Assembly (NCBI GenBank): GCA_002840305.1
Contig: PHAI01000001.1
Span: 112,074 to 176,073, forward strand
DNA from: Candidatus Falkowbacteria bacterium HGW-Falkowbacteria-1
GTDB taxonomy: Bacteria > Patescibacteriota > Patescibacteriia > Patescibacteriales > UBA12465
Length of the DNA: 64,000 nucleotides
Direction of reading: 5' to 3'
This document shows, in pieces, positions 1 to 59,767 of this stretch. The notes beneath the pieces were generated by a model that did no database searches, was not told where the DNA came from, and worked only from the letters and a program-made list of their open reading frames with translations. The stretch's first letter is position 1. Every line of letters begins with the position of its first letter. Made by a program: the position numbers and the translations under genes.

Positions 1-455
1 CGGTTAAACAGATTATTGATTTGTATGAACAGTATAAATGCCCGATTATTGGTTTATCAGAAGTTGATGAAAATAAGGTAGACAAGTTTGGTGTTATAGA
101 TGGACTTGATTTGGGAAATGGAAATTATGAAATAAAAAGATTCGTAGAAAAACCAAAAGTTGGGGAGGCTCCGTCAAACTTGGCCGCCGTTGGTCTGTAT
201 GTTATTACTCCTGAAATTTTTAAAGTTTTGTCTACTATGAAAAAGGGTAAGTCGGGAGAAATAAGATTGGCGGATGCTTTTGATATTATGTTAGAGAATA
301 ATAGACCTTTGTATGGCAAAAAAATAGAAGGAGAATGGCTTGATACTGGTAGCAAGTTTAACTTTATAAAAGCTACTATAAAGTTGGGCCTAAAAAACGA
401 GGAAGTTAAAGAGGATCTTGCTAATTTTATTAAACAAATAAGTAAGGATATATAA
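1..455 (+). CDS. galU: UTP--glucose-1-phosphate uridylyltransferase, C-terminal part (5' end lies outside the window)
   Basis: The translation contains the VEKP motif and a GalU-like C-terminus (…RFVEKPKVGEAPSNLAAVGLYV…). The ORF is open to the window edge. Confidence 0.6.
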   Translation, partial: VKQIIDLYEQYKCPIIGLSEVDENKVDKFGVIDGLDLGNGNYEIKRFVEKPKVGEAPSNLAAVGLYVITPEIFKVLSTMKKGKSGEIRLADAFDIMLENNRPLYGKKIEGEWLDTGSKFNFIKATIKLGLKNEEVKEDLANFIKQISKDI

Positions 456-465
456 TTTATTTATT

Positions 466-1803
466 ATGAACCATTTAGTTCGAAGGATAATATTTTGGTC
501 TTTTTTCTTTATTTTTATAATCTTGACTTTGTATTTGTCCTTGTTGGCTAGTGGGTATATGATTTCTTTTTCCTCTCTCAAGCCTCCATATAAGTTGAGT
601 CTTTTACAAAAGACTGGGATATTGGCTATAAACTCCGAGCCTAAGGGGGCCGAAGTGAGCTTGGTTAAAAATTTTAAGAGTTTTCTAGTCTCTCGTGACG
701 TTTTTAAAGACAAAAAAATAGAAACTCCCTATAAAGCTAAGAATTTAATTCCAGGTGAATATGTTTTAAGGCTTGAATTGGATGGATACTGGCCATTCGA
801 ACAGAAAGTGTATATAAATCAAGGTGAGACAACTTATGTTGAAAATGTGTCCCTGCTTAAGAAGTCTTTGCCTTTAATGATTTTTCCTTCAACGGTTCAA
901 GCTATAGAAGTGGATAGTAATTTTTCTAATGTATTTTTGTCGGAAGATTTGAAAATTTTTAATATAAAAAACGAAACGGAGTTTAATTTAGGCCTAGATG
1001 TTGATAGTCTCAAGTTCTTAGACAATAGTAAGCTTGCGGTCAATGATGATTTAATTTTTGATTTGAATAAAAATAAGTATATTGGATCCAGTCAAGGAGA
1101 TGGTGTCTACAGGAAAAACATAAAAATAAATAAAGACAGAATTTATTATTTAAATTCTGAAAAAAATATTTTTGTTTGTGATTTAGATTTTGAAAATGAT
1201 AGCTTATTTTTTGAAGGAGAAAATATCGATGATTATTTTATTGGTGGTGATTTTATTTTTTTAATTTCAGAAAATTTAGACAAAAAGTATTTTAAAATCT
1301 ATTCTTTTGCAGAAAAAAAACTTGTGAGAGAGCTAGAAATGCCATCTTTCGGTAATTTTCAAATTTATTCTGTTATTGGTAGTTTTGTTTTAGTTCGTGA
1401 TTCTAGCTTTTCAAGCTTGTATATACTGGAGCCGTTTTCAAAAATAAATGTGTTTAGAGGGTTTTTGACAAAAGTAGAAAACATTAATTTTGTAGATAAC
1501 AACAGTTTTGTTTACTCAAGCGGTTTTGAAATTTTTCTTTTTAATTTATCCCTATTTCAAAGCTTTCTAATTTCTCGCTTTGAGGATAATATTACCAGCC
1601 TGCTTTGGCATCCGAAAGAATATGTTATCTTCTCAAATGGCAAGGACATAAACGCTATTGATTTAAAATATAATAAGTATGTGACAAAACTTTTTTCCTT
1701 CGACAAGGTCTCCAATATTGTCTTAGATAAAAATGGCGGAATATTATATTTTACTGGTAAGATAGCCAATCAAGAGGGCTTGTATAAATTGTCTATTCAG
1801 TAG
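466..1803 (+). CDS. Membrane-anchored PEGA-domain protein of unknown function
   Basis: There is an N-terminal TM helix followed by a PEGA-like segment (INSEPKGAEVSLV…PGEYVLRLELDGYWPFEQKVYINQGETTYV). Confidence 0.45.
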   Translation: MNHLVRRIIFWSFFFIFIILTLYLSLLASGYMISFSSLKPPYKLSLLQKTGILAINSEPKGAEVSLVKNFKSFLVSRDVFKDKKIETPYKAKNLIPGEYVLRLELDGYWPFEQKVYINQGETTYVENVSLLKKSLPLMIFPSTVQAIEVDSNFSNVFLSEDLKIFNIKNETEFNLGLDVDSLKFLDNSKLAVNDDLIFDLNKNKYIGSSQGDGVYRKNIKINKDRIYYLNSEKNIFVCDLDFENDSLFFEGENIDDYFIGGDFIFLISENLDKKYFKIYSFAEKKLVRELEMPSFGNFQIYSVIGSFVLVRDSSFSSLYILEPFSKINVFRGFLTKVENINFVDNNSFVYSSGFEIFLFNLSLFQSFLISRFEDNITSLLWHPKEYVIFSNGKDINAIDLKYNKYVTKLFSFDKVSNIVLDKNGGILYFTGKIANQEGLYKLSIQ

Positions 1804-3254: not shown

Positions 3255-4676
3255 ATGCTTAATAAAAAACAAAAAGCTTTTACACTTATTGAATTATTAG
3301 TGGTAATAGCTATTATAGGTATTTTGGCTACTCTAGCGGTTGTAGCTCTACAGCAAGCCAGACAAAATGCTAGAGACGCAAAAAGAGTGGCGGACATGAA
3401 ACAGGTCTCCACTGCTTTAGAATTGTTTTTTAGTGAAAATGGTAGATATCCAACAACTGATGAGTGGAACAGTGGCGCTATAACCTCTTCTAGTACAGGG
3501 GAAATATTTATGTATAGCATTCCTGTTGCCCCAACCCCTGCTGATGGAAATTGCTCTCCCGCCTCTAATACTTATGCCTACATTCCTGTTGATAATGGCA
3601 ATAGTTATGCCATTAATTTTTGTATTGGAAAACAACTTTCAAATCTTAATGACGGAGCCAAGACAATGATCCCTGGTGGTATAGTTGATTATAGTGGCCA
3701 ACTAGAAGAAGAGCCAGGGGGTTGTTTGCCAGAATGTTCTGAGGGTTATATTTGTAATGAAGGAGAATGTGACCTTGTTGCTTGGGTTGAGCAATCACTT
3801 TCTGGTTCAAGAGAATGGTATTCTATAACCTCATCTTCTGATGGTACTAAATTGGCGGCGTGCGCTATGAATGGTTATATTTATACCTCTTCTGACTCAG
3901 GCCAAACTTGGGTGGAGAGAATTTCTGCTGGTTCAAGAAGCTGGGCGGCTATAAGCTCTTCGTCCGACGGAACAAAGCTTGTAGCGGTTAATAATTATTC
4001 TGGTGGAAGTAGTGGCGGGTATATTTATACCTCTTCTGATTCTGGACAGACCTGGGCAGAGAGAACGTCTTCTGGCGAAAGAAGTTGGGAAGGAGTAACC
4101 TCGTCTTCTGACGGAGTAAATTTGGCTGCCGTGGCTTACAATAGTGATTATATTTATACGTCAGATGACTCCGGTGTAACATGGACTGCCAGAACTTCGG
4201 CTGGAGCAAGAGATTGGGACACCATTGATTCTTCTTCTGACGGCTCTATGTTAGCAGCCATCAGTGAATGTGGGTATTTATATACATCTTCTGATTATGG
4301 GGTTACCTGGGTAGAGCAAACTTCTCTTGGGTCAAAATGTTGGAGTTCAGTTGCTTTTTCTTCTGACGGAGAAAGAGCCGTCGCCGTGGCCGCTACTCTT
4401 GATAGTGTTTATGTTTCTTCTGACTTTGCTCAAACGTGGACAGAAAAAGCATCTTCTGGATCAAGAGCTTGGTATTCAGTTTGCTCATCGTCCGATGGAA
4501 GAAAAATATTTTCCGCCGTTTGGGGTGGCTATATTTATGCATCCTATGATTATGGCGAAACATGGGTTGAACAAACTCCTTCTGGCGCAAGAAACTGGGT
4601 TGATATTTCTTGTTCAAACGACGCCAACGAAGTGTCCGCTGCCGTTAACAATGGGTATATATATACCTACAGATAA
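3255..4676 (+). CDS. Type IV pilin-like protein with a C-terminal 7-blade BNR/Asp-box beta-propeller
   Basis: The N-terminus is a prepilin domain ([30 protein letters not shown]). A Cys-rich linker follows, then about 7 repeats each carrying the S-x-D-x-G-x-T-W Asp-box (YIYTSSDSGQTWVE…SSSDG…). Confidence 0.7.
   Translation: MLNKKQKAFTLIELLVVIAIIGILATLAVVALQQARQNARDAKRVADMKQVSTALELFFSENGRYPTTDEWNSGAITSSSTGEIFMYSIPVAPTPADGNCSPASNTYAYIPVDNGNSYAINFCIGKQLSNLNDGAKTMIPGGIVDYSGQLEEEPGGCLPECSEGYICNEGECDLVAWVEQSLSGSREWYSITSSSDGTKLAACAMNGYIYTSSDSGQTWVERISAGSRSWAAISSSSDGTKLVAVNNYSGGSSGGYIYTSSDSGQTWAERTSSGERSWEGVTSSSDGVNLAAVAYNSDYIYTSDDSGVTWTARTSAGARDWDTIDSSSDGSMLAAISECGYLYTSSDYGVTWVEQTSLGSKCWSSVAFSSDGERAVAVAATLDSVYVSSDFAQTWTEKASSGSRAWYSVCSSSDGRKIFSAVWGGYIYASYDYGETWVEQTPSGARNWVDISCSNDANEVSAAVNNGYIYTYR
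3780..4673 (+). repeat. In-frame tandem repeats (~126 nt each, about 7 copies) encoding the BNR propeller blades
   Basis: Nucleotide words recur (tatatttatacctcttctga…, tcttctgacgg…) and the protein shows repeated YxSSDxGxTW…SSSDG blades. Confidence 0.7.
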
Positions 4677-8302: not shown

Positions 8303-8434
8303 CATTTTTTATAGGATTATTAGGATTTTTGAAATACTTAGGGCGCTTGGGGCTTTGAAAACGTAAAAGTTTTAACAATAACATTGGTTTTAATAATCTC
8401 AAATATCCCAAGAATCTTAACAGCTCCACTTGTT

Positions 8435-41540: not shown

Positions 41541-43580
41541 TTAGATGTCTAGATTTGAAACATTTTTGGCGTGTGTTTGAATAAAATTCTTTCTTTTAGA
41601 AACATCATCACCCATTAACATGTCAAAGACTATATCTGCTTTGCCGGCGTCTTCTACTGTTACTTGTTTTACTATTCTGCTGGCCGGATTCATAGTTGTC
41701 TCCCATAATTGTTCTGGATTCATTTCACCTAAACCTTTGTACCTCTGAATAAATAATTTTTTGCTCTTTTTTTCTTCATCTTTATCAGCGGATTTTTTAG
41801 ATTTTTTATTTTTTGTTTCTTCCTCTGTCCCTTCTCGACTTTCCTCTGTCTCTTCGGCCGTCTCTTCTTCTTTCACGTCTCCCCCTAATTCTTTAATTAT
41901 TTTGTTTTTTTCTTCTTCAGTGTAGGCATATTTAGAAGAAGATCCTTTCTTGATCTGATAAAGGGGGGGCTGAGCGATATAAATATTACCATTAGTGACG
42001 AGCGGATTGAAGTATCTGAAAAATAGAGTCAGGAGCAGGGTCCTGATATGCGAACCATCAACATCGGCATCGGTCATAATTATAATTCGACTATAACGAA
42101 GTTTTTCTATATCTATTTGGTCCCCAATATTTGTGCCTAGGGCTATGACTAAATTTTTGATTTCGTTGTTAACTAGCATTTTATCCAAACGAGCTCTTTC
42201 TACGTTCAAGATTTTTCCTCTAAGTGGCAATATAGCCTGAAATCGTCGATCCCTGCCTTGTTTAGCACTACCTCCAGCCGAATCACCCTCTACTATATAT
42301 AATTCGCATTCAGCAGCTTTATTGCTTGAGCAATCAGCTAATTTTCCCGGCAAAGTCATTCCCTCTAAAGCGCCTTTTCTTAGAATACTAGCTCTAGCTG
42401 TCCTGGCCGCTAATCTGGCCTGGGCTGATAAGAAGCATTTGCCAATAATACTTTCGGCTTCTTTTGGATTTTCTTCTAAAAACATCGAAAAAGATTCACC
42501 AAAAATTTGCTCAACATAAGTTTTCATTTCTGCATTACCAAGCTTACCCTTGGTTTGTCCTTCAAATTGTGGGTCTGGTAATTTTACACTTACGATAGCA
42601 GTTAATCCCTCGCGCACGTCTTCTCCTGTTAAATTTTCATCTTTTTCTTTTAAAATATTTTTGCTTCTAGCATAGGAGTTCAGAGTTCTGGTGAGAGCTG
42701 TTTTAAAACCAATCAGATGAGTTCCGCCGTCGACATTGTAGATGTTGTTGGCAAAAGGGAGGGTGGTTTCATTGTATTCATCGTTATATTGTAGGGCTAC
42801 TTCTATTTTGCATTCGTTAATTTCTTTTTCAATATAAAAAACAGTGTCATGTTTAACATTTTTTTGTCTATGAAGTGATTTGATGTATGACTTTATACCA
42901 CCTTCAAAATAAAATTTATATTTTTTGGGGCTATGTTTTGGTCTTTCATCGCTTATATTTATTGTAATTCCTTTGGTTAAATATGTTTGTTGTCTTAAGC
43001 GATCTAAGATTTTTCCCCAATCAAATTCTGTTTCAGTAAAAATACTCTGATCAGCTTTAAAACTTATTATTGTCCCTGTTTTTTTTGTTGTACCAACGGC
43101 CTTGATGTTTTTTAAGGGTTTCCCAATTTTGTATTCTTGTTCCCATATTTTACCATCACGGTGTATTTCAGCTTTTAAATATTCACTTAAAGCATTGACA
43201 ACAGAAACTCCTACGCCATGAAGACCTCCGGAGATTTTGTATCCACCTCCACCAAATTTTCCACCAGCGTGCAATTTTGTTAAAACTGTTTCTAAGGCTG
43301 AGAGGCCGGTTACCTTATGTCTTTCAACTGGGATACCACGACCATTATCGGCTACTTCAACTATACCGTTGTTTAAAAGTCTTACGCTTACTTCGTCGGC
43401 ATATCCAGCCATAGCTTCGTCTATGCAATTGTCGACAACCTCCCAGATTAAGTGGTGTAGTCCGGCCGAAGAGGTAGAGCCAATATACATTCCGGGTCTT
43501 TTTCTGACAGGGTCTAGGCCTTCAAGGACGGTGATAGAATCGGCTCCGTAGTCTGATTTAATTTTTTTCTTGTCTTCCAT
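41541..43580 (-). CDS. gyrB: DNA gyrase subunit B (type IIA topoisomerase B subunit) with an acidic insertion near the C-terminus
   Basis: GLHHLIWEVVDNCIDE (GHKL), LHAGGKFGGGGYK, the Toprim EGDSAGG motif and PLRGKILN are present. The insertion is EETAEETEESREGTEEETKNKKSKK. Start set at MEDKKK. Confidence 0.9.
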   Translation of the reverse strand: MEDKKKIKSDYGADSITVLEGLDPVRKRPGMYIGSTSSAGLHHLIWEVVDNCIDEAMAGYADEVSVRLLNNGIVEVADNGRGIPVERHKVTGLSALETVLTKLHAGGKFGGGGYKISGGLHGVGVSVVNALSEYLKAEIHRDGKIWEQEYKIGKPLKNIKAVGTTKKTGTIISFKADQSIFTETEFDWGKILDRLRQQTYLTKGITINISDERPKHSPKKYKFYFEGGIKSYIKSLHRQKNVKHDTVFYIEKEINECKIEVALQYNDEYNETTLPFANNIYNVDGGTHLIGFKTALTRTLNSYARSKNILKEKDENLTGEDVREGLTAIVSVKLPDPQFEGQTKGKLGNAEMKTYVEQIFGESFSMFLEENPKEAESIIGKCFLSAQARLAARTARASILRKGALEGMTLPGKLADCSSNKAAECELYIVEGDSAGGSAKQGRDRRFQAILPLRGKILNVERARLDKMLVNNEIKNLVIALGTNIGDQIDIEKLRYSRIIIMTDADVDGSHIRTLLLTLFFRYFNPLVTNGNIYIAQPPLYQIKKGSSSKYAYTEEEKNKIIKELGGDVKEEETAEETEESREGTEEETKNKKSKKSADKDEEKKSKKLFIQRYKGLGEMNPEQLWETTMNPASRIVKQVTVEDAGKADIVFDMLMGDDVSKRKNFIQTHAKNVSNLDI

Positions 43581-43904
43581 ATTTATATAATAAAATAATA
43601 ATAAAAAAAGCAATAACAAACAAAAACAAGAGTTTTTATTTGCCTAACTCCATTAATATTGTAACAAATTAATTGGGGGGAGTAAAGGGGATGGGGTGGG
43701 ATTCTTGAGATTTTTAAGATTCTTGAGATCCTTGAGATTTTAGAAAAGCGCTGTTTGTGGGTAGGTGGGATGGCCAGGATTAATATTCAAGGGAGCCAAT
43801 GAAATCTGGCATGAAACTGGCTTGACTTTTGCAAGAAAGTGTGCCATAATTGCAAGTTAGTTTCAGGACTTTAAAAAATAAGGGGCTTTAAGTTAATTGT
43901 TAAG

Positions 43905-43975
43905 CTAATCTTTTTCTTTTGTCATCTTGACCGAATGAGGAGAGTGGCGACAAGCGATCAAAGAGATCTGTAAAC
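43905..43975 (+). repeat. Partial copy (5' arm) of the small repeat element family A
   Basis: ctttttcttttgtcatcttgaccgaatgagg…gagatctg matches the 5' half of the 47745..47866 element. Confidence 0.45.
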
Positions 43976-44026
43976 TAGATTGATTTAGCAATTAACTTAA
44001 TTATAAACCTTCAAAAATTAAAAAAC

Positions 44027-44419
44027 ATGAAAACAAAAGAAGTTTTTTCGGCGGAGTTAGTTGAAACAGTTAAGCACGATTTGAAGTGGGAGAGGGGCTC
44101 TGCTGTAATATTTGTTTGTGCATTTTTAGGGATTGGGATATCCGTTTTATTATTTCATTTCCATCTTTTGCTAGGAATAGATCCTTCCTGGCTTTATCTA
44201 TTTATTGTGTTGTGCCCAGTTATTGGCATGATTGTTAACTCTTTTTTTCCTTATTCTAATGATAAAAAAATTAAAAGGAGGCTCGAACGAATTATATCTC
44301 AAAGAAAAAGTTTTAATTCCGACCAAATTGCTTCCTTGATAATAGAGATTGAAGAAAAAAAGGATGAGTTAGAAGAGCTTCGACACGAAACGATGCTCTT
44401 GGGTGAAATTGATTATTAA
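44027..44419 (+). CDS. Small membrane protein of unknown function
   Basis: Two hydrophobic helices with a charged C-terminus. Confidence 0.35.
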   Translation: MKTKEVFSAELVETVKHDLKWERGSAVIFVCAFLGIGISVLLFHFHLLLGIDPSWLYLFIVLCPVIGMIVNSFFPYSNDKKIKRRLERIISQRKSFNSDQIASLIIEIEEKKDELEELRHETMLLGEIDY

Positions 44420-44442
44420 TTTAAAAACAGGAGGAAGTCAAA

Positions 44443-44826
44443 ATGCCGATAATTATTGTGTATGGAATTTCAGAAAAAGAAGATTCTGCTTTTCTCGAAA
44501 TGTTTATTGATCTTGTGCGGTCCAAAGTTGCCAGTATTGAAGAACTGAAAATTAAAAAAGAACAAGTTTCAGTTTTTCTCCAAAGAGATCTTGTGGTTAA
44601 AGGATTGGGCGAAGAAATAATCATTTTCGTTGAAGGTTTGATTAGTAGACCGGAAAGGACGGAGGAAGTGAAAAAAAAATTAGCCATGGAATTGGTTATT
44701 AAAGTGAACGAATCTTTTCCTAAAACTCTTTTTGTTGATTGTATTATCAAACCTTTAAGTTCTGGCGACATTTGCGCTTACGGAGAAATAAAGGGGAATA
44801 TGTTTTTTACCGATTTTAGAGATTAA
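44443..44826 (+). CDS. Hypothetical protein
   Basis: 127 aa starting MPIIIVYG. A good hairpin terminator lies downstream. Confidence 0.4.
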   Translation: MPIIIVYGISEKEDSAFLEMFIDLVRSKVASIEELKIKKEQVSVFLQRDLVVKGLGEEIIIFVEGLISRPERTEEVKKKLAMELVIKVNESFPKTLFVDCIIKPLSSGDICAYGEIKGNMFFTDFRD

Positions 44827-44845
44827 TTTTTTAAATTGGTTTATT

Positions 44846-44876
44846 AGCTGGCATTATAAATTGCCAGCTTTTTTTA
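44846..44876 (+). terminator. Rho-independent terminator
   Basis: agctggca-ttataaat-tgccagct followed by ttttttt. Confidence 0.55.
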
Positions 44877-44895
44877 GATTTAATGTTTAAGATTT

Positions 44896-45050
44896 TTTTA
44901 AAATGCGAACATTGGAAAAATTTTGAAAAAATCATAAGCGTAAAAAGCGTGTAAAATTTAATTGTTTGAGGCTGGATGAAATTTAGCCGAGCCTTAAAGT
45001 TTGCCAGCTTTTATAGTGATTGTTACGAAATCTTGAGTTGCTGGCGATTT
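44896..45050 (+). repeat. Conserved intergenic element family B, copy 1 (candidate structured ncRNA or repeat)
   Basis: By eye this is about 70-75% identical over ~170 nt to the reverse complement of 54318..54510. It shares the exact 23-mer cgtaaaaagcgtgtaaaatttaa. Confidence 0.5.
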
Positions 45051-45096
45051 CCTGCCTGCCGGCAGGCAGGTTGTGCCACTTTTTTAAAAAAGTGGC
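45051..45096. repeat. Two adjacent perfect palindromes (GC-rich 10+10 and 11+11)
   Basis: cctgcctgcc|ggcaggcagg, then ttgt, then gccactttttt|aaaaaagtggc, about 80 bp upstream of the epimerase gene. Confidence 0.8.
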
Positions 45097-45174
45097 TCGA
45101 GAAAAAATGTTTTTTGACTTTTAGGCAGTTTTAATATAAAATTTAAGTATAAATAAAAAAATATAACATAATTT

Positions 45175-46107
45175 ATGTTTAAAATTTTAGTTACAGGTGG
45201 GGCCGGTTTCATTGGTTCCAATTTAGTTAATAAACTGCTTGATTTGGGTCATGAGGTTGTTGTCATTGATGATTTATCTAGTGGCAAAAAGGAATATTTA
45301 AATCCTGTGGCCAAATTTTATCATATTGATATTAACGATAAAAAAGTAAATGACATTTTTAAAGCAGAAAGTTTTGACTACGTTTGTCACTTGGCAGCTC
45401 AAATAGATGTTAGAAAATCGGTAGAAAATATGACTTTTGATAATCAGGTTAATGTTTTGGGCGGGATAAATATTTTAAAAAATTGTCACAATTTTAATGT
45501 TAAAAAAATAATTTTTTCTTCTTCTGGTGGAGCGGCCTATGGCTTTCCTGATAAAATTCCGACCAAAGAACATCATCCAACCTATCCCGTTTCTCCTTAT
45601 GGTATAAATAAAATCTGTTTTGAAAAATATTTAAATTATTATTATAAAGTTTTTGGTCAGAAATATATTGCCCTTCGTTTAGCTAACGTTTATGGTCCGA
45701 GGCAGTACAAAGGAGGAGAGGCTGGGGTTATTGCTAATTTTACCAGCAATGCCATAGCTCAAAAAAAGAGTTTTATTTACGGAGATGGTTTGCAGACCAG
45801 GGACTATATTTATGTTGATGATGTAGTAGAGGCTTTTGTTTTGTCGATTCAGTCTGATTTTATAGGAGAGCTTAATGTTGGTACAGGAATAGAAAAAAAT
45901 CTCTTGGAAGTTGTGGAGGCCATAGAAGCTTCTTTGGGAAGTAAATTAGAAATAGAATATCAAGAAGCAAAATTAGGTGAAGAAAGAAGGAGTGCTCTCG
46001 ATGCTTCACTGGCTAAAGAAAAATTAAATTGGGAAGCAAAAATTGATCTAAACGAAGGAATAAAAAGAACTATTGAGTGGGCAAGTAATAACAATTTTCC
46101 CTCGTAA
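45175..46107 (+). CDS. NAD-dependent epimerase/dehydratase (UDP-glucose 4-epimerase-like)
   Basis: The Rossmann motif TGGAGFIGSN and the YxxxK region (…SPYGINK…) are present. Confidence 0.85.
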   Translation: MFKILVTGGAGFIGSNLVNKLLDLGHEVVVIDDLSSGKKEYLNPVAKFYHIDINDKKVNDIFKAESFDYVCHLAAQIDVRKSVENMTFDNQVNVLGGINILKNCHNFNVKKIIFSSSGGAAYGFPDKIPTKEHHPTYPVSPYGINKICFEKYLNYYYKVFGQKYIALRLANVYGPRQYKGGEAGVIANFTSNAIAQKKSFIYGDGLQTRDYIYVDDVVEAFVLSIQSDFIGELNVGTGIEKNLLEVVEAIEASLGSKLEIEYQEAKLGEERRSALDASLAKEKLNWEAKIDLNEGIKRTIEWASNNNFPS

Positions 46108-46187
46108 CTGAAATTACTACGGAAAAACAAGTTAAATTAATAATAGCTGGATTCCAGCTTTTGCTGGAATGACAAGGCTTTGGGTAT

Positions 46188-46949
46188 ATGTCTAAAAAAA
46201 TAATTGCTGGAAATTGGAAAATGAATTTGGATTACAAAAATTCTTTAATTTTGGCGGAAAAAATTAGCAAAATTTTGGCCTTTAAAAAATCTAGGAATGA
46301 GATTATAATTTTTCCTGATTTTTCTTCTTTGCTTTCCATTTCTCAAATCGTAAAAAAGAGTCAGATAAATATTGGAGCTCAAGACGTGGCCGCTTTTCCG
46401 CTTGGAGCCTATACTGGAGAGATATCGACAGAGACTTTAAAACAAATAAATTGTAAATATATTTTGATTGGACATAGTGAAAGGAGACAATATTTTGGTG
46501 ATAATAACTTTGTTGCTGATAAATTAGAAAATGTTATAAAAAATAGCAAAATTACTCCTATTTTATGTATTGGTGAAAGCTTGGTAGAAAGAAAAAAGGG
46601 TGAAACCTTTAAAGTCTTAAGCAAACAGTTAAGTGATGCTTTTTCCAAAATTAAATTAGAAAATATCGTAAATAGAAAAATAATAATTGCCTATGAACCA
46701 GTTTGGGCAATTGGGACAGGTTTGGTCGCTGAGGTAAATGATATAATTTTGGCACACAGAGAAATAAAAAAATGTTTTTCTAAAATGTTTAAGGGCGATA
46801 AAGTAAGAGAGGTTCAAGTTTTGTATGGTGGCAGTGTAAACGTTAACAACTTTTTAGATTTAGAAAATTTAAAAGAAGTTGATGGCCTATTGATAGGAGG
46901 AGCTAGTTTAAAGGCTGGTGACTTTCTTGATATAGCTTTTAATTTTTAA
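46188..46949 (+). CDS. tpiA: Triosephosphate isomerase
   Basis: AGNWKMN, IGHSERR and …YEPVWAIGTG… are present. Confidence 0.9.
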   Translation: MSKKIIAGNWKMNLDYKNSLILAEKISKILAFKKSRNEIIIFPDFSSLLSISQIVKKSQINIGAQDVAAFPLGAYTGEISTETLKQINCKYILIGHSERRQYFGDNNFVADKLENVIKNSKITPILCIGESLVERKKGETFKVLSKQLSDAFSKIKLENIVNRKIIIAYEPVWAIGTGLVAEVNDIILAHREIKKCFSKMFKGDKVREVQVLYGGSVNVNNFLDLENLKEVDGLLIGGASLKAGDFLDIAFNF

Positions 46950-46953
46950 ACAT

Positions 46954-47739
46954 ATGTATAATATTTGGCCACTTATAATAATTTTAATTAGTTTGTTGGT
47001 TGTTTTGTTTATTGTCATGAGGCGATTTCCTGCTTTGGCAGTGCTAGACGTTGATAACATCCCGGAAGAAAAAGAACAGCAGATAAAAGAAAAAATAATT
47101 AAAAGCAGAATTAAAAGAAAGTTTTCTTATTTAGACAAATTTTTTGCTTTAGTGGGTAGACTCTTTCTTAAAATATCTAAATATATTTGGGATAGTTTAG
47201 ATAATTTTAAAAAAAAGCAAGAAAAAAAAATAGAAAGTAGCATGTTGTCTGGTGTTGGCGAAGGAGAACAGTTAAGGTTTTTGTTTAATCAAGTGGAGAC
47301 TTTAATCAAAGAAGAAAAACTGGAAGAAGCTGAACAAAAATTAATTGAAATGATAAGTCTTGATGATAAAAATTTGTTAGCCTTTTCTGAATTGGGAAAA
47401 CTATATCATTTTGAGGGTAAGCTTCAAGAGGCTAGACAGACCTTGCTTTACGCTTTAAAATTAGCTGAAGTAGAAAATTTGAAAACCGACCAAGCTGAAT
47501 TAAATTATAATCTATCTTTAATAGCCAAGGATTTGAAAGACATAGATGGTGCAATTTTGAGTTTATTGAAAGCCCTAGATAAAGATGCTAAAAATCCTAG
47601 GTATCTTGATTTAATGTTAGATTTGTGTATAATTAAAAAAGATAAAAATCTAGCATTGGAATATTTAGTGAGAATAAAAGAAGTAAATCCGGAGAATCAA
47701 AATATTTTGGAATGGGAGAGAGAGGTAGGAAATCTTTAG
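46954..47739 (+). CDS. TM-anchored TPR-repeat protein
   Basis: An N-terminal TM helix is followed by TPR-like helical repeats (AFSELGKLYHFEGKLQEARQ…). Confidence 0.45.
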   Translation: MYNIWPLIIILISLLVVLFIVMRRFPALAVLDVDNIPEEKEQQIKEKIIKSRIKRKFSYLDKFFALVGRLFLKISKYIWDSLDNFKKKQEKKIESSMLSGVGEGEQLRFLFNQVETLIKEEKLEEAEQKLIEMISLDDKNLLAFSELGKLYHFEGKLQEARQTLLYALKLAEVENLKTDQAELNYNLSLIAKDLKDIDGAILSLLKALDKDAKNPRYLDLMLDLCIIKKDKNLALEYLVRIKEVNPENQNILEWEREVGNL

Positions 47740-47744
47740 GATTT

Positions 47745-47866
47745 TTCTTTTGTCACCTCGACCGAATGAGAGGCGAAGCGACGAATGAGTGGAGATGGTT
47801 AAAACATCAAGAAGCAGATCTCTCTATTCGTCATCCGCAGGATGGCTCAGTCGAGATGACAAAAGG
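47745..47866 (+). repeat. Small repeat element family A, complete copy with terminal inverted repeats (MITE-like or structured RNA), immediately upstream of tRNA-Thr
   Basis: The 5' arm ttttgtcacctcgac pairs with the 3' arm gtcgagatgacaaaa at 14 of 15 positions. The inner pair is gacgaatgag/ctattcgtc. Confidence 0.55.
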
Positions 47867-47875
47867 GATAAAATG

Positions 47876-47948
47876 CCGAGATAGCTCAGTTGGTAGAGCA
47901 TTTCCATGGTAAGGAAAAGGTCGCGGGTTCAAGTCCCGCTCTCGGCTC
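47876..47948 (+). tRNA. tRNA-Thr (anticodon GGU)
   Basis: Cloverleaf gccgaga…atGGTaa…ttcaagt…tctcggc. Confidence 0.8.
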
Positions 47949-47986
47949 AGTTTTTTAAAAACTATTGTTGAACTAAAACTTTCAGA

Positions 47987-48547
47987 ATGGCCAAAGAAAA
48001 AAACAGAAGTGGTCTCTCTAAAAAAAATACGAGAGGAAGAAAAAGAAGCAGTAAACATCCTAAAGCAATTTCTGTCCATCACATCCTTCCGCGTAGTAGG
48101 GGTGGTGGTGACGGGCTTGAAAACAAAGCGAAGATTGTAGCATGCGATCATGAAAAGTTTCATAAACTTTTTAAGAACATGACTCCATTTGAGACTTTAG
48201 CCTGGTTGCAAATTTACTTTTGGGGCTTACAGATTGATTACGTAAGCGAGTACTGTTTTAACCGGGATAAATTTCTTTTTAACAATGGTAGATATAATCT
48301 ATCAAAAAGATCCAGAGATAAAAGCCAAAGAGTTACCTTGAGATTTCATAAGGCTCCATTTATTCGTTATGTTTTTCACGAACCAACCGTGATTCCTTAT
48401 CATAGTGAAATATATTACGAACTTTTTGGCAGTATGACACAATATGAAATTCTGGCCTGGCTCGAGGTGTATTTTTGGAAAAAACAAACCCGTTGGATAA
48501 ATGAATATGTATCCAATAAGGATTATTTTTTGTCCAATTTGGATTAA
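47987..48547 (+). CDS. HNH-endonuclease-like protein with an internally duplicated C-terminal domain
   Basis: HHILPRSRGGGDGLENKAKIVACDHEKFH is the HNH core. It is followed by two similar segments (TPFETLAWLQIYFWG… and TQYEILAWLEVYFWK…). Confidence 0.55.
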   Translation: MAKEKNRSGLSKKNTRGRKRSSKHPKAISVHHILPRSRGGGDGLENKAKIVACDHEKFHKLFKNMTPFETLAWLQIYFWGLQIDYVSEYCFNRDKFLFNNGRYNLSKRSRDKSQRVTLRFHKAPFIRYVFHEPTVIPYHSEIYYELFGSMTQYEILAWLEVYFWKKQTRWINEYVSNKDYFLSNLD

Positions 48548-48742
48548 TGTTTTTAAATTGAGTATTTAGTATTAGATAATTCACCGTCAACACAATAGTT
48601 GGCGGTTTTTTTGTTTATTTTTAGTAGATATTGACATTTTTTTAAAAATATGCTATAATACCGAAACAGTAGCGATTAGCGCTACTAAGCACCTTGAAAT
48701 TTGAATAATATTATAAACTAAAATAAATAGGAGGATTAAATC

Positions 48743-49924
48743 ATGAAATTTTCTGATCGATTTGTCGGCAAAGCGCAGTGGAATGCTTTTTTTGCCATTA
48801 CTTTCTTGCTTGTTTCAATTGCATTACCTGTTATTTTCTTGTTGTTTGGGCTCAATTTATTAATTGGCCTGGCTATAGGATTAGCTCTTTTTCTTTTTAT
48901 TTCTATCATCGCCCTGTTTAAAGGATATCGTTTCTTTTTTAACAATTATCCTGATTGCAAGGACATGGAACTTCGAAGATTTTATTCTGTTCCTGAAAAG
49001 CATGCTGCTTTGGTGGAAATAAATGGACTTTATCCAGAAAAACCTCTTCATGCCGGTTATTACTTTGTTTTTCCCTTTTTTGAAATTGTTACTTTCTCCC
49101 AAACTATTTTCTTGGGTGATTTTAACGGAGTAATTTTTGATGGAGGGGAAGAAAATAAGATTGATTTTAGTAATGGGATATCCACTCCGATAGAGGCTAT
49201 GTATGTAGCTCATCTTTATTCGGGACCAGAATTAGGATTTGACTTAACGGTGGTGGGTAAGACCAAGGAAGAAATTGAAGAGATAGAGGATGTTGTGTCC
49301 ATATTAGCTTCAATGTTGGATAAGGAAAAAGACGAAATTAGAGCGATGAAGACAGTAACGCGCGAATTGAAAAGTGTTATCCTTGACAACAGTATTAAAA
49401 GGTATGCAAAAGAGGAAAATGCTGACGATAATATTCGTGAAATGTTAATGTCTCTCTTGCGTTTAACTTTGGGCAGTCAAGATTCTAATAAAGCCCGAAA
49501 AGATAAGATTGGCTTGGATAAGTTGAAGGAAGAGGATCGTTGTGTTTTTAATTCCATAATAAAACACTACGGTGTAGATATTCGTTCGATAAATATTTCT
49601 GACATCAAGTTGGCGCCAGAAGAAATAGAAATCAATCGCGCCAAATACCAATCTGGACTTAATGTTGAAATTGCTGAAGACAAGAAAAAAACAGCCATTA
49701 TTGACGCTGAGGCTAAAGCCAAGGTTATGGAATTAGAAGGAGACGGTTTGAAAAATCAGATAAAGAGTATCGTTGATGCTGGTGCTTCCGCCGAGAAAGT
49801 TTTGGAATATTTAACCAAAATGAAACAGTGGGAGTCCATGAAGCCAAGCGACAAATCATTTATCATTGATAATGGCGGAACGATTGCCGGAATACTCGCG
49901 GCTATTGGTAGTGTAAAACCTTAA
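48743..49924 (+). CDS. SPFH/band-7 (stomatin/prohibitin-like) membrane protein
   Basis: TM helices precede VPEKHAALVEINGLY…HAGYYFVFPFFEIV and a coiled-coil AEAKAK region. Confidence 0.55.
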   Translation: MKFSDRFVGKAQWNAFFAITFLLVSIALPVIFLLFGLNLLIGLAIGLALFLFISIIALFKGYRFFFNNYPDCKDMELRRFYSVPEKHAALVEINGLYPEKPLHAGYYFVFPFFEIVTFSQTIFLGDFNGVIFDGGEENKIDFSNGISTPIEAMYVAHLYSGPELGFDLTVVGKTKEEIEEIEDVVSILASMLDKEKDEIRAMKTVTRELKSVILDNSIKRYAKEENADDNIREMLMSLLRLTLGSQDSNKARKDKIGLDKLKEEDRCVFNSIIKHYGVDIRSINISDIKLAPEEIEINRAKYQSGLNVEIAEDKKKTAIIDAEAKAKVMELEGDGLKNQIKSIVDAGASAEKVLEYLTKMKQWESMKPSDKSFIIDNGGTIAGILAAIGSVKP

Positions 49925-49936
49925 TAATTAGAAAAA

Positions 49937-50683
49937 ATGAGCGGAGGAAAGACAAAGGGAATACCTTTACCGAAAAAGATTGAGCAGGTTCAAGATCAAA
50001 ATCAAGAACCGGCACAAAACGATAAGCCAAAATCCAGCCCGAGAGAGCCAAATAAAACACTAATGTCTATTAGAAATGTTTTTTTAGCTTTTCTGATAGG
50101 AGTTGTTCCATTTGTTCTAGTTTGGATCTTCATGTACTTTTTTAATTTTGATTGCCCTGAAAAGCTCAAGTATTATTTAAGTTATGAGGAATGGCGGTTT
50201 TGGACAAGGCTTCTAATTTCTCTATTGCTAACCGGAATAACATTAAAATTGCTTGATTCCGTAGCAGAAGAAAAAAACAAGTTTGCCGATGGAATTTCAA
50301 AGGCATTATTACTGACGCTTATCGTGTTTATCTTGTGGTTCTATGGTATTTCTAAGCCATCAAGAGAGCCACAACTGGCAAGAGAGGCGAGCGAAGTTAG
50401 CTGCTTCAATCCGAATCCCTTTAAGGATTTGATGCCAAAGTATGTTTTTACTCTTAATAGAGGAGAAAAAAGTCTTTGGATCGATTTTCCGGCGGGATAT
50501 AATCTAAAAAATTGGGGGAATTTAAACTACTACAAAATCATCTATAAAGATGGTAGCGTGGTTACCATAGACGGTAATAGAGTGGTAAAACTCCCAGATT
50601 TAAACGAGAGTACTCAAGTTCGCTTTGAGTCTTTGTCGGACGGACAAACAATATATGTTTATCTGACAAGAATCAAAAGATAA
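49937..50683 (+). CDS. Membrane protein of unknown function
   Basis: Three hydrophobic helices and a C-terminal soluble domain. Confidence 0.4.
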   Translation: MSGGKTKGIPLPKKIEQVQDQNQEPAQNDKPKSSPREPNKTLMSIRNVFLAFLIGVVPFVLVWIFMYFFNFDCPEKLKYYLSYEEWRFWTRLLISLLLTGITLKLLDSVAEEKNKFADGISKALLLTLIVFILWFYGISKPSREPQLAREASEVSCFNPNPFKDLMPKYVFTLNRGEKSLWIDFPAGYNLKNWGNLNYYKIIYKDGSVVTIDGNRVVKLPDLNESTQVRFESLSDGQTIYVYLTRIKR

Positions 50684-50786
50684 AAGATAAACTTAAAGGA
50701 CGAAGAAATTCGTCCTTTTTTATTTGCTTTTTTTTGAAAATATTGTTATCATATTAATAGATTTTAAATTTTTTAAACTTTATAAT

Positions 50787-51158
50787 ATGATTAAAAAAAT
50801 ATTTTCTTATTTTTTGTTGATATCATTTTTCTTTTTGGCCTCTTCTAGTTTGGTTTTTGCACAAGCCGATCAAAATAACCCCCCTGCATCAACGGCGGTT
50901 AGTCTTTCTAATCCTTTAGGCGCAGGAGCTACAGCTCAAAGCGTTATTGGAAATGTTATCAGCCAGGTATTGGGCGTTGTTGGAGCCCTGGCCTTAATCA
51001 TGTTTATTTATGGAGGTCTTACTTGGATGACTGCGATGGGCAATGAACAACAAATAAAAAAAGGTAAAGATATTTTGATGTGGGCTACATTAGGGTTGGT
51101 TATAATTTTCTCGTCATACGCTTTAGTTAAATTTGTTTTACAAGCCATCGGCGCATAA
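50787..51158 (+). CDS. TrbC/VirB2-like pilin-domain protein (signal peptide + two TM helices)
   Basis: The signal peptide MIKKIFSYFLLISFFFLASSSLVFA is followed by GGLTWMTAMGNEQQIKKGKDIL and a second TM. It is paralogous to the N-terminus of 15775..18279. Confidence 0.55.
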   Translation: MIKKIFSYFLLISFFFLASSSLVFAQADQNNPPASTAVSLSNPLGAGATAQSVIGNVISQVLGVVGALALIMFIYGGLTWMTAMGNEQQIKKGKDILMWATLGLVIIFSSYALVKFVLQAIGA

Positions 51159-51236
51159 CTTTAGTTGACATTATTTTTTTTTATTGTAAAATATTGAGGT
51201 TACTTATTTTAGGTTTTTTAAAAATCTTTTTTTATT

Positions 51237-51319
51237 GGGTCGATACCAAAGCGGTCAACTGGGGCAGACTGTAAATCTGCTGGCATTCGCCTTCGTAGGT
51301 TCGAATCCTACTCGGCCCA
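51237..51319 (+). tRNA. tRNA-Tyr (anticodon GUA), long variable arm
   Basis: gggtcga…gcaga-ctGTAaa-tctgc, a long variable arm, and gtagg-ttcgaat-cctac-tcggccc. Confidence 0.7.
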
Positions 51320-51428
51320 CATATGTTAATTCATCCTGACAAAATTGGCAGAAGTTTTATCAAAATATTTTTGGTTTTATTTTTAATTCTGCTAGTCGTT
51401 GGGGCGATATTAATGCTTATTTAAGTTT

Positions 51429-52307
51429 ATGCCAGAATTACCAGAAGTAGAAACAATAAGAAACGGCCTGAGCCGTTTTGTTTTGTTTAAAGAGATAAAA
51501 AAGCTAGTCTTGCTCGATACCAATCTCTTTAAAGGGGCTGAAAATGATTTGTTAAAATTGAGAAAGGATGAATTTTCTCAAATAGATCGTTTAGGCAAGG
51601 CCCTTGTTTTTTCTTTTAAAAAGAGTGAGAAAAAAATGATTATTCATTTGAAGATGACTGGTCAATTAGTTTATTTTTCTGGAAAAAATTTGAAGGAACA
51701 GGCCATGCTGGCTGGTGGCCATAGTGAGAAAGGGCAAAATAATTTAGATATTTCAAAATTTAAACATCTTAGATTGAGAATAGAGTTTTTTGATAATAGC
51801 TTTTTGATTCTAAATGATACTAGACGATTTGCCTATCTCAAGCTACTAAACATCAAAGAATTTGAAGAGGTGAGTGGCAAATTGGGAGTAGAACCACTAT
51901 CAAAAGGCTTTAGCCTTAGTTATTTTTTAAAGATCTTAGAGAAGAGAAAAAAGAATATTAAAGCCTTTTTGCTTGACCAGAGCTTTGTAGTCGGAATGGG
52001 AAATATTTATGCCGATGAAATCTTGTTTGCTTCAAAGCTAAGTCCGTTCAGGAGTGTTGACTCGCTTGATTTAAAGCAGAAAAAAGTTCTCTATAATAAT
52101 ATAAAGAAAATATTGAAATTAGCCATAAAAAAAAGAGGGACCACTTTTAGCGATTATGTTGATGCTGATGGTAAAAGCGGTAATTTTTCGAGCGTGCTAA
52201 AGGTTTATGGTCGTAAAGGCCAAAAATGCAGGAGTTGTAACGGTTTGGTGGGAAAAACAAAGCTTGTTGGGCGCGGGACTCATTATTGCCCTAAATGTCA
52301 GAATTAA
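51429..52307 (+). CDS. mutM: Formamidopyrimidine-DNA glycosylase
   Basis: MPELPEVETIR is the N-terminal Pro. A C-terminal zinc finger (CRSCNG…CPKCQ) is also present. Confidence 0.9.
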   Translation: MPELPEVETIRNGLSRFVLFKEIKKLVLLDTNLFKGAENDLLKLRKDEFSQIDRLGKALVFSFKKSEKKMIIHLKMTGQLVYFSGKNLKEQAMLAGGHSEKGQNNLDISKFKHLRLRIEFFDNSFLILNDTRRFAYLKLLNIKEFEEVSGKLGVEPLSKGFSLSYFLKILEKRKKNIKAFLLDQSFVVGMGNIYADEILFASKLSPFRSVDSLDLKQKKVLYNNIKKILKLAIKKRGTTFSDYVDADGKSGNFSSVLKVYGRKGQKCRSCNGLVGKTKLVGRGTHYCPKCQN

Positions 52308-52316
52308 AATATAAAG

Positions 52317-52385
52317 AGCAGATCTCTCCATTTGCCCTTCTCCGCCAAAAGGCTACGGCGGGCTCAGTCGAGATGACAAAACTAA
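52317..52385 (+). repeat. Partial copy (3' arm) of repeat element family A
   Basis: gcagatctctc…gggctcagtcgagatgacaaaac matches the 3' half of 47745..47866. Confidence 0.5.
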
Positions 52386-52388
52386 TTA

Positions 52389-52416
52389 TTGACTTTTAAT
52401 CTTTGTTTGCTATAAT
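52389..52416 (+). promoter_or_regulatory. Putative sigma70-type promoter for rpmG
   Basis: TTGACT, a 16-nt spacer, then TATAAT. Confidence 0.35.
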
Positions 52417-54275: not shown

Positions 54276-54317
54276 TATATAAATCTATTTTATACTACTT
54301 TTTTAGAAAAAGTAGCC

Positions 54318-54510
54318 AAAAATCGCCAGCAGCTTAAAACTTCGGGCCAGCTACTATAAAAGCTAGTAAAATTTAAAACTCGACTAAACTTCGTTTAGTC
54401 TTAAACAGTTAAATTTTACACGCTTTTTACGTAGCTGTCTTGTCCGAAATTTTTTCAATGCTGGCATTTATTTTTTAAAATTGTTTGCAATGTTTGCATT
54501 TTTAATGAAA
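54318..54510 (-). repeat. Conserved intergenic element family B, copy 2 (inverse orientation to copy 1)
   Basis: Its reverse complement aligns to 44896..45050 and includes the identical cgtaaaaagcgtgtaaaatttaa. Confidence 0.5.
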
Positions 54511-58579: not shown

Positions 58580-59767
58580 ATGACAAAAAAAATAATTAGA
58601 AACTATGCAACATTTATGTTGCTTGAAGGATTAGCTCTTAGCTTTTTCTTTGGTACTTATCAGCTATTTCTTTTAGAGAAAGGCTTGAGTTTATTAGAGA
58701 TAAATCTCCTTAATTGTGGATTTATGATTGCTAATTTTTTACTCGAAATTCCTACTGGTGCGATTGCCGATTTTTTTGGGAGAAAGCGCTCGGTTATTAT
58801 TGGTCTTTGGATTTATGCTTTATCGTTTTTTCTTTATTTTCTTTCACAAAATTTTTGGCAATTTTTAGTAGCAGAAATTATTGGTGCAGTAGCCATAACT
58901 TGTATTTCTGGCGCTCTTGAAGCTCTGGTTGTTGATTCTTTGAATCACTATGGTTATGATGGAAAATTAGAAACGATTTTTCGTCGGGGTGAAATTAGAA
59001 GCTTGGGCGTCATTGTTGGAGCGGTTATTGGCTCTTTTGTTGGTCAGATTAATTTGGCTTGGCCTTGGTTGCTCAGTTCTTTGGCTTACGTTTTTTTAGC
59101 CATAGCATCAAATTATTTTTTTTATGAAGATTATTTTATTAAGCCAGAAAAAATAAAATTTGGGCTAGAACCAATGAAAAAGATTGCCAAAGAAAGCATT
59201 GTTTATGGCCTTAAAAATCGTCCCTTAATGTTTGTTGTTGCTTTTTCTGCTATCTTGTCTCTGGCCGTCCAGCCGGTAAACATGTATTGGCCAATTGCTT
59301 TCAAAAACATTTTCGATGTACAAACCAAATACATGGGATTAATTTTTGCTGCTATAGTGATTTCTGCTTATGTTGGTTCTCAATTTTCAAAAGTTTGGCA
59401 GAAAAAAATTAAATGTCAAAAAAATGCAATTTTCTTTTCACAGATTATTACATTGCTGGGAATTTTAGGGGCTTGTTTCTTTTCTAGGTTGCCATTATTT
59501 TTAGCTTTTTTCTTGATTCACGAATTTGGCCGTGGTTTATTTAATCCTCTTAGTCGCGCTTATATAAACGAGAATATTGAAAGCAAAAATCGCGCCACTG
59601 TTTTGTCGTTTGAATCTATGGTCGTGAAAGCTGGAGCTGGAGCTGGTTTAATCTTGAGCGGGTTGATAGCTGATAATTTTGGTATTTTAAACTCTTGGCT
59701 AATAAGCGCTTTGATTTTGGTAATTGGGATTTTTATTTTTTGGAGAAAAAATGGAACAAAAAATTAA
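58580..59767 (+). CDS. MFS transporter
   Basis: About 12 TM helices and the G-x-x-x-D-R/K-x-G-R-[KR] motif (DFFGRKRS). Confidence 0.8.
   Translation: MTKKIIRNYATFMLLEGLALSFFFGTYQLFLLEKGLSLLEINLLNCGFMIANFLLEIPTGAIADFFGRKRSVIIGLWIYALSFFLYFLSQNFWQFLVAEIIGAVAITCISGALEALVVDSLNHYGYDGKLETIFRRGEIRSLGVIVGAVIGSFVGQINLAWPWLLSSLAYVFLAIASNYFFYEDYFIKPEKIKFGLEPMKKIAKESIVYGLKNRPLMFVVAFSAILSLAVQPVNMYWPIAFKNIFDVQTKYMGLIFAAIVISAYVGSQFSKVWQKKIKCQKNAIFFSQIITLLGILGACFFSRLPLFLAFFLIHEFGRGLFNPLSRAYINENIESKNRATVLSFESMVVKAGAGAGLILSGLIADNFGILNSWLISALILVIGIFIFWRKNGTKN

Follow-up and report, generated by a model that had tools for sequence, protein, structure and literature searches.

The 64,000-nt stretch of the genome of Candidatus Falkowbacteria bacterium HGW-Falkowbacteria-1 (Patescibacteria) analysed here (the window) has the gene order gyrB - epimerase - TIM - tetratricopeptide repeat (TPR) gene - tRNA-Thr ... 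fpg - rpmG - AI-2E transporter, which is shared with relatives, and carries a small hairpin-forming repeat between these genes. Pfam places gyrB at 41541-43619 on the - strand and the ends of the TPR gene and of fpg at 47739 and 52307; tRNA-Thr(GGT) is located at 47875-47948. A preliminary description of the sequence had reported the repeat as an element with one full copy next to tRNA-Thr and two half copies. The three sites are real and the sequences quoted are found there, including the 5' arm ttttgtcacctcgac (47748-47762), which pairs with gtcgagatgacaaaa (47850-47864) at 14 of 15 positions, but the full copy is an inverted dimer and the supposed halves are complete singlets.

Repeat units of the window

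A scan of the window with the 15-nt motif TTTTGTCAYCTYGAC found four matches with at most one mismatch (43917+, 47748+, 47850- and 52367-). With at most three mismatches there were 10 matches, 1.8 being expected, and 10 or more were seen in none of 100 shuffles. The four motif-bearing segments were aligned in one orientation. Since three of them share the 3' end GAGAGATCTG besides the 15-nt motif, the repeat unit is a hairpin module of ~50-65 nt, in the order TTTTGTC tag, AT-YY-C stem, GA/GA, variable inner hairpin, G-RR-AT and CTG tail (Table 1). The stretch 47748-47864 is an inverted dimer of two such units, B and C, with the TTTTGTC tags outside, and units A and D are complete single units. 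The inner pair of arms described before is present in the dimer, but it exists only because the 3' parts of the two inverted units are homologous. The open reading frame (ORF) 47712..47912, which crosses the repeat and extends into the tRNA gene, is very probably spurious, as had been stated.

A covariance model (R1) built from foreign units only and run with filters off gave, below E = 1, units A, B, C and D and no other match in the window. Unit A is found upstream of both gyrB, 298 nt from its start, and ORF 44027, at a distance of 57 nt; its tag, stem ends and CTG tail are intact and its interior has diverged. Unit B has the TTTTGTC tag, the stem strand ACCTC and GAC-CGAAT..GCGAAGC..GAGT-GGA, followed by a degraded 3' stem strand and tail (GAT-GG where GNNAT-CTG is expected). 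Unit C reads TTTTGTC-ATCTC-GAC-TGAG-CCATCC-TGC-GGATGA-CGAATA-GA-GAGAT-CTG on the - strand. Unit D, a singlet and the best preserved of the units, is found 11 nt past the stop codon of fpg and 7 nt ahead of the -35 box in the promoter of rpmG, a small gene (ribosomal protein L33, 52389-52665) with the near-consensus promoter TTGACT-16-TATAAT at 52389-52416. The next R1 match, at 59601-59633 (+) with 11.8 bits and E 1.1, reads TTTTGTCGTTT...AAAGCTG and is located within ORF 58580-59764, which encodes an MFS transporter; this is probably a chance match, or possibly a relic unit.

Table 1 Repeat units of the window and the basis of their assignment
Feature	Coordinates	Strand	Basis
Unit A, singlet	43917..43970	+	R1, 24.9 bits, E 1.7e-3
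Short-form unit	46147..46174	-	sole window match to published SRM pattern; sequence TGTCATTCCAGCAAAAGCTGGAATCCAG
Unit B, left dimer unit	47748..47797	+	R1, 25.3 bits, E 1.4e-3
Dimer spacer, TTAAAACATCAAGAAG-like, ~17 nt	47798..47814	.	sequence reading
Unit C, right dimer unit	47815..47864	-	R1, 42.6 bits, E 2.7e-7
Unit D, singlet	52319..52381	-	R1, 50.3 bits, E 6.1e-9

Besides these long-form units, the window contains a short-form unit in the epimerase-TIM spacer. It was found with the search pattern published for Ssn-related motifs (SRM), HGTCWYN(0-2)YYVSBRHN(0-5)WNVSBRGN(0-2)RNCYNB (Nat Commun 2025, 16:2388; PMC11893778), which gave a mean of 0.027 matches in the shuffled window. The unit has the layout TGTC-ATTCCAGC-AAAA-GCTGGAAT-CCAG, with a stem of 8 bp, a loop of 4 nt and CCAG as the tail, and folds as DNA with -7.8 kcal/mol (z -3.2). 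When the window was extended by 10 kb on each side (83 kb examined), no further units were found. All five units lie inside one 8.5-kb stretch, 43917-52381, near gyrB, fpg and tRNA genes; this clustering could reflect local spread or chance. The Neisseria repeat NTS is reported to cluster as well.

Distribution and covariation of the hairpin

A first gapped pattern, derived from the window, was used to scan species-representative genomes and revealed 20 genome loci in at least five phyla. The hosts are Patescibacteria (several metagenome-assembled genomes (MAGs), including Cerribacteria and Moranbacteria), Pirellulales, Bacteroidales, Gammaproteobacteria and a deltaproteobacterium. In a second pattern, two inner positions of the first stem were left free on both sides; it found at least 120 loci in metagenome contigs, and a scan of viral contigs with the unit pattern gave 0 matches. 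The fetched loci (845 kb, numbered with the prefix L) contain 445 unit heads, ~3 being expected, and the base preceding GTC is mostly T in these heads. A full foreign element consists of a left unit, a loop and a right unit which is the reverse complement of the same unit kind, with a spacer of 7-60 nt or with an ssn-like gene in its place. Pairs with the tags outside (head-to-head, HH) number 108 and have a median head-to-head distance of 115 nt (~110 nt in the window dimer), as opposed to 30 tail-to-tail (TT) pairs; single units are as common as pairs. Nested partial duplications of the head (head-tail pairs) are common in the fetched loci, and long and short forms occur together in several foreign contigs.

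The stem positions that were left free carry the evidence for a hairpin. Among 100 unique units found with the second pattern, 95 pair at both unforced positions, by TC/GA (33), TT/AA (32), CC/GG (15) and CT/AG (10). An alignment of 41 sequences (A1), for which a structure was specified, has the consensus TTTTGTC, ATYYC, GA, C, C/T, GRA, P2 ... P2', GRA, G/A, Y, G, GA, GRRAT, CTG. The cells of A1 are paired to 95.1%, compared to 75.4% in shuffles and 26-59% with the partner slid, and 92 cells show double changes where 30.8 are expected. Every unforced pair in A1 covaries, including the C-G/U-A pair beside the bulged pyrimidine. The GA/GA step and the GRA/GRA loop are predicted to be non-canonical purine pairs, which is probable. 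The form GNA is found in 25 of 41 apical triloops, and 34 of the 41 are closed by C-G, C-GAA-G being the commonest. A GNA loop closed by C-G is known from the unusually stable DNA mini-hairpin d(GCGAAGC) and is not a typical stable RNA loop. G-T pairs (5) and C-A mismatches (3) at the free stem positions are uninformative on an RNA strand.

The 131-nt region 47740-47870 as a whole folds as a long hairpin, with -44.8 kcal/mol (z -3.5) for the + strand and -50.5 kcal/mol (z -7.2) for the - strand as RNA and z-scores of -3.3 and -4.8 as DNA. The long hairpin of ~120 nt proposed earlier is thus seen as a fold of this region, but covariation speaks for a local hairpin within each unit and not for the 120-nt hairpin between units.

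Two foreign arrangements are recorded here in their own right. In the Patescibacteria MAG138 (L003, L014, L016 and L020), the dimers are nested in a longer conserved inverted repeat, TTAGACTGTAGAAGAACAT ... GTGTTCTTCTACGCCCTAA, and the dimer appears to travel within, or to insert into, a larger palindromic element. In L098, an IS110-family transposase gene (35-1207, - strand; PF01548 + PF02371) splits the right unit of a dimer which is intact in the related contig L050 (9499-9620); the junction reads ...GATCTGattaaaatAGA|. IS110 elements are known to target repetitive extragenic palindromic (REP) sequences, and the insertion in L098 fits this targeting.

Orthologous sites, related repeats and GIY-YIG genes

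The sites of the units were compared with a graded set of Patescibacteria whose TPR protein is 68-85% identical. In four relatives the spacer between the TPR gene and tRNA-Thr measures 18-89 nt and contains no unit, compared to 135 nt in the window. After fpg, relative L147 has the stop codon followed by CAC-TTATTGACTTT, and the window carries ~75 extra nt with unit D before the same promoter box, TTATTGACTTT. The spacers upstream of gyrB in L146 and L147 are likewise without a unit. Since the unit is missing from all three orthologous sites, the long-form units are, judged by this comparison, lineage-specific insertions. Degenerate short-form copies were found in the same epimerase-TIM spacer of L142, L144 and L145; the short-form unit of the window is therefore older than the long-form insertions. 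The proximity to tRNA-Thr, which had been taken as a typical trait of the insertion, looks incidental, because the relatives keep the junction of the TPR gene and tRNA-Thr without the element. In L145 this spacer (2787-2875) holds a different inverted-repeat element of ~70 nt with TTGTC termini, TTGTCGTGTCCAAGCAAA...TTTGCTGGGCTGACAA, which is unmatched by R1; the TPR-tRNA-Thr spacer seems to be a recurrent landing site.

Among known repeats, the units are most readily compared with the CGTC-tagged REP superfamily, which includes dRS3 of Neisseria and RPE-4/RPE-6 of Rickettsia (Di Nocera, De Gregorio & Rocco 2013, BMC Genomics 14:522, PMC3733652). These repeats have a tag CGTC, which is 'changed to TGTC' in many of them and for which the variant CCTC is allowed, a stem of 8-9 bp that starts with A-T, T-A, a loop of 4-5 nt and an unpaired 3-nt tail with the consensus CCA; they form mostly HH dimers with spacers of 20-100 bp, are intergenic and often located just downstream of ORFs, and have neither a linked tyrosine transposase nor a dedicated transposase (PMC3733652). 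All four long-form units and the short form begin with TGTC, and the A-T, T-A start of the stem (ATYYC/GRRAT) is found in units A, C and D and in the short form, with AC in unit B. Further, the units have an unpaired 3-nt tail (CTG and CCA in the long and the short form, respectively), HH dimers predominate, and the units are intergenic, often just downstream of ORFs, with no tyrosine transposase among the 25 of 135 families listed for their neighbours. The short-form unit is an exact fit to the family CGTC-1 in stem (8 bp), loop (4 nt) and tail (CCA). Unlike the superfamily, the long form has a perfect stem of only 5 bp, after which come GA/GA, a bulge, an internal loop of purines and an apical hairpin that varies from 4 to 10 bp; its stem strands are 20-50 nt apart, the tail is CTG instead of CCA, and nested head duplications occur. 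Patescibacteria and Planctomycetota are outside the five phyla listed for the superfamily.

A second relation leads to the NTS repeat of Neisseria, CGTCATTCCCGCGMAVGCGGGAATCYRG, and the nuclease SsnA, a single-domain GIY-YIG protein of 94 amino acids (cd10448) that binds and cuts NTS only as single-stranded DNA (ssDNA) and on one strand only and does not act on RNA (PMC11893778). Cleavage by SsnA is governed by the 3 nt upstream of the palindrome and binding mainly by the C directly following it, and SRM flank ssn genes throughout bacteria (PMC11893778). The units resemble these hairpin repeats in that the ends of the long form fit the consensus HGTCWY...RNCYNB and in that the determinants of SsnA (GTC tag and the C behind the palindrome) are best conserved: GTC-AT...AT-C is kept in units A, C and D of the window, and even in the decayed unit A conservation is highest in the tag, in the AT ends of the stem and in the C that follows. 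Elsewhere, genes for GIY-YIG proteins of ~94-105 amino acids lie beside or between units, as in NTS-ssnA-NTS. In contrast to the hundreds of copies in Neisseria or Wolbachia, there are few copies here.

The GIY-YIG genes were missed by the first screens of neighbouring ORFs because of a size cut-off of 110-120 amino acids. Clustering of the neighbours of at least 120 amino acids gave no dominant family, and 150 neighbouring ORFs of at least 110 amino acids fell into 135 housekeeping Pfam families plus two IS110 transposases; several neighbours of ~346 amino acids that had been guessed to be transposases were rejected, all being housekeeping genes. A search for small ORFs in the 845 kb, which had been fetched by the unit pattern alone, revealed 9 single-domain GIY-YIG ORFs (PF01541). 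Five of the 9 are flanked by units on both sides within 500 bp, as are 1.7% of random intervals. In L013, a Patescibacteria locus, an ORF for a GIY-YIG protein of 94 amino acids starts ~75 nt after a dimer with the tags outside; in L019, L071, L062 and L099 the gene is flanked by arrays of units; and in the protein of L019, Tyr, Tyr and Glu are spaced as Y6, Y17 and E64 of SsnA. In L133 the GIY-YIG gene lies exactly between two inverted long-form units, at 322-364 (+) and 706-747 (-). The arrangement in L133 (322-747) is TTTTGTCATTCC...GGAATCTG - gene - CAGATTCC...GGAATGACAAAA, and this cassette resembles an 'autonomous' version of the dimers that contain no gene.

A system that is alike in outline is REP/REPIN-RAYT (Nunvar 2010; Bertels & Rainey 2011), where singlets are decayed doublets and the single-copy nuclease gene is flanked by repeats. 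The units share with it the tagged hairpin, the inverted doublets that fold as a long hairpin and the singlets; they differ in the tag, TGTC here and GTAG there, and in the enzyme, an HUH Y1 transposase in RAYT and GIY-YIG proteins at the units elsewhere. A text search of the literature for GTCATCTCGAC returned chance primer matches only. A search on repetitive extragenic palindromic sequences in Patescibacteria gave nothing relevant, and the RepRanger paper is silent on the long-form family. The kind of repeat is known already (CGTC/TGTC REPs, PMC3733652; SRM, PMC11893778), so the earlier statement that the element is uncatalogued stands for the long form alone, whose architecture, breadth across phyla and presence in Patescibacteria appear undescribed in the literature searched.

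Interpretation and alternatives

In sum, the long-form units are probably REP-type hairpin repeats that act at the level of DNA and belong to the CGTC/TGTC-tagged superfamily, which includes dRS3/NTS of Neisseria and the Ssn-related motifs. This reading draws together the sequence and structure of the units, which place them in the family, the covariation of the local hairpins, the wide distribution, the orthologous sites without a unit and the association with GIY-YIG genes elsewhere. Foreign copies, covariation and the empty sites in relatives also agree with the first characterisation of the element as multi-copy, structured, intergenic and inserted, of the kind of MITEs (miniature transposable elements with inverted repeats) or REPs.

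Each unit is a module specific to one strand. It has an unpaired 5' tag (T)TTTGTC, a stem starting with A-T, T-A (ATYYC/GRRAT), a core in which what is probably a tandem G.A/A.G step is followed by a C-G pair, a pyrimidine bulge, another pair (C-G or U-A) and a purine-rich internal loop, then a variable apical hairpin, and an unpaired CTG tail. By analogy with the systems described above, we infer how the units are recognised, cut and spread. A unit would fold when the DNA is single-stranded, as in replication, repair or uptake. A small nuclease of the Ssn type, with GIY-YIG as its single domain, may then bind the folded unit and nick it next to the GTC tag. The units and their dimers with outside tags could be non-autonomous derivatives of a unit-ssn-unit cassette, as REP/REPIN are of RAYT. 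In this genome, a dedicated cellular role of the units is improbable, apart from side effects on transcripts nearby.

Several observations weigh against this interpretation. No target-site duplication, for which the preliminary description had suggested a search, is present at any of the three sites, and no defined insertion mechanism was seen. The stem and loop of the long form do not have the 8-9 bp and 4-5 nt of the superfamily, and no long-form unit matches the SRM pattern, because the units are too long and GA follows the stem. Units A and B are degraded, and under standard parameters for DNA or RNA the lone units of the window have folds no better than those of shuffles (z ~0), so that the window units look partly decayed. 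Since the ends of the foreign units are fixed by the search patterns, their invariance is not evidence, and only the unforced positions count. The window with 10 kb on each side (83 kb) contains no Ssn-like ORF. Finally, the GIY-YIG neighbours elsewhere were assigned by PF01541 and not by direct comparison with SsnA or cd10448, and some of the ssn-flanked loci (L022, L062 and L099) are from one population and thus not independent.

The alternative of a structured non-coding or cis-regulatory RNA that is transcribed with the flanking genes, be it a stabiliser of the 3' untranslated region, a terminator, a ribozyme or a small RNA family, is unlikely. The strong covariation of base pairs, the start of two copies 8-11 nt past stop codons and the z-score of -7.2 for the - strand of the dimer would all suit an RNA, and many REPs have been argued to act as RNA hairpins (Di Nocera 2013, PMC3733652). 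However, Rfam matched only tRNAs, with nothing else at the gathering score in the window and 20 loci and nothing at the element (47600-48000) at E<=10; both orientations of the unit are seen with respect to genes as well as inside every dimer; and close relatives have the same gene junctions without it. Further, G-T pairs (5) are not in excess over C-A mismatches (3), the terminator scan found no site at the long-form units and no terminator-like T-run follows the units, the GNA apical triloops are of the DNA type rather than RNA tetraloops, and SsnA is inactive on RNA (PMC11893778). The small structured RNA family considered in the preliminary description is therefore not upheld. Self-cleaving ribozymes (hammerhead, twister, pistol, hatchet and hairpin) were rejected as well, since no core motif of these is present and Rfam is silent.

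A classical MITE, that is, an internally deleted DDE transposon with the terminal inverted repeats TTTTGTCAT...ATGACAAAA that is mobilised in trans as double-stranded DNA, is very improbable. It would account for the small size and intergenic position, for termini that pair at 14 of 15 positions, for the empty orthologous sites in relatives and for the MAG138 copies inside longer inverted repeats. It would leave a target-site duplication, though, and none is seen at the three sites on comparison with the unit-less relatives; units occur singly as often as in pairs; and both ends are themselves covarying hairpins, for which a transposase binding double-stranded DNA would have no need. Among the 150 neighbouring ORFs there is neither a transposase gene with these ends nor a parent insertion sequence, and the sole recurrent cargo between units is the GIY-YIG gene. 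Mobilisation by a RAYT, an HUH Y1 transposase, as in the REP/REPIN families of Pseudomonas and E. coli, would fit the architecture (5'-tagged hairpin, singlets and inverted doublets, the doublet folding as a long hairpin), but the tag is TGTC and not GTAG, no tyrosine transposase is linked to CGTC-type repeats (Di Nocera 2013, PMC3733652), Y1_Tnp is not among the 25 of 135 families listed for the 150 neighbouring ORFs of at least 110 amino acids, and a crude search of the window for an HUH+Y motif found nothing; we regard it as very unlikely. That the matches are remnants of local duplication or chance similarities with no family behind them, an outcome the preliminary description had allowed for, is refuted: four long-form units in 83 kb, all within 8.5 kb and two of them degraded, might suggest it, but the model from other organisms recovers the units with E down to 6e-9, hundreds of copies exist in unrelated phyla and the hairpins covary.

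For the long-form units as Ssn-related DNA hairpins, a more far-reaching reading is tentative and on balance doubtful: they may constitute a distinct branch of the Ssn system that extends across phyla, in which the GIY-YIG nuclease would recognise an extended, G.A-interrupted hairpin, unit-ssn-unit cassettes such as that of L133 would be autonomous ssDNA mobile elements and gene-less dimers such as 47748-47864 their non-autonomous forms. If true, this would be a GIY-YIG counterpart of RAYT/REPIN that is active now or was so recently even in reduced Patescibacteria genomes. If the neighbouring GIY-YIG proteins do cut the long-form units, they would offer new specificities for the cleavage of ssDNA, and the cassettes and gene-less dimers would support the view that Ssn genes are present or past mobile elements. 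The probable assignment itself points to a common unannotated repeat of environmental genomes and MAGs that is tied to the site-specific ssDNA nucleases of the Ssn type, and would extend the pairing of repeat and Ssn to Patescibacteria and to a longer hairpin that is missed by the published pattern. For annotation, the sites are to be treated as repeat insertions, neither as genes nor as RNAs with a regulatory part for tRNA-Thr, fpg or gyrB, and spurious ORFs such as 47712..47912 are to be expected from the repeat.

Other repeated sequences were observed in the window. Two intergenic segments of ~160 nt, at 44880-45070 (+) and 54300-54490 (-), are ~80% identical, inverted and 9.3 kb apart. A GC-rich palindrome, CCTGCCTGCCGGCAGGCAGG, forms the end of the first segment, and the second is located just upstream of tRNA-Trp (54591); neither has an Rfam match, and the pair could be an unannotated RNA or a duplicated promoter-leader. 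Upstream of gyrB, at 43700-43750, there are short tandem GATTCTTGAGAT-like repeats which are 82% complementary to 8388-8420, between tRNA-Lys and tRNA-Thr, and are possibly another small repeat family. Finally, six tandem repeats of ~126-144 nt with 63-75% identity are found at 3873-4630, inside ORF 3255-4673, and presumably encode a repeated protein domain.

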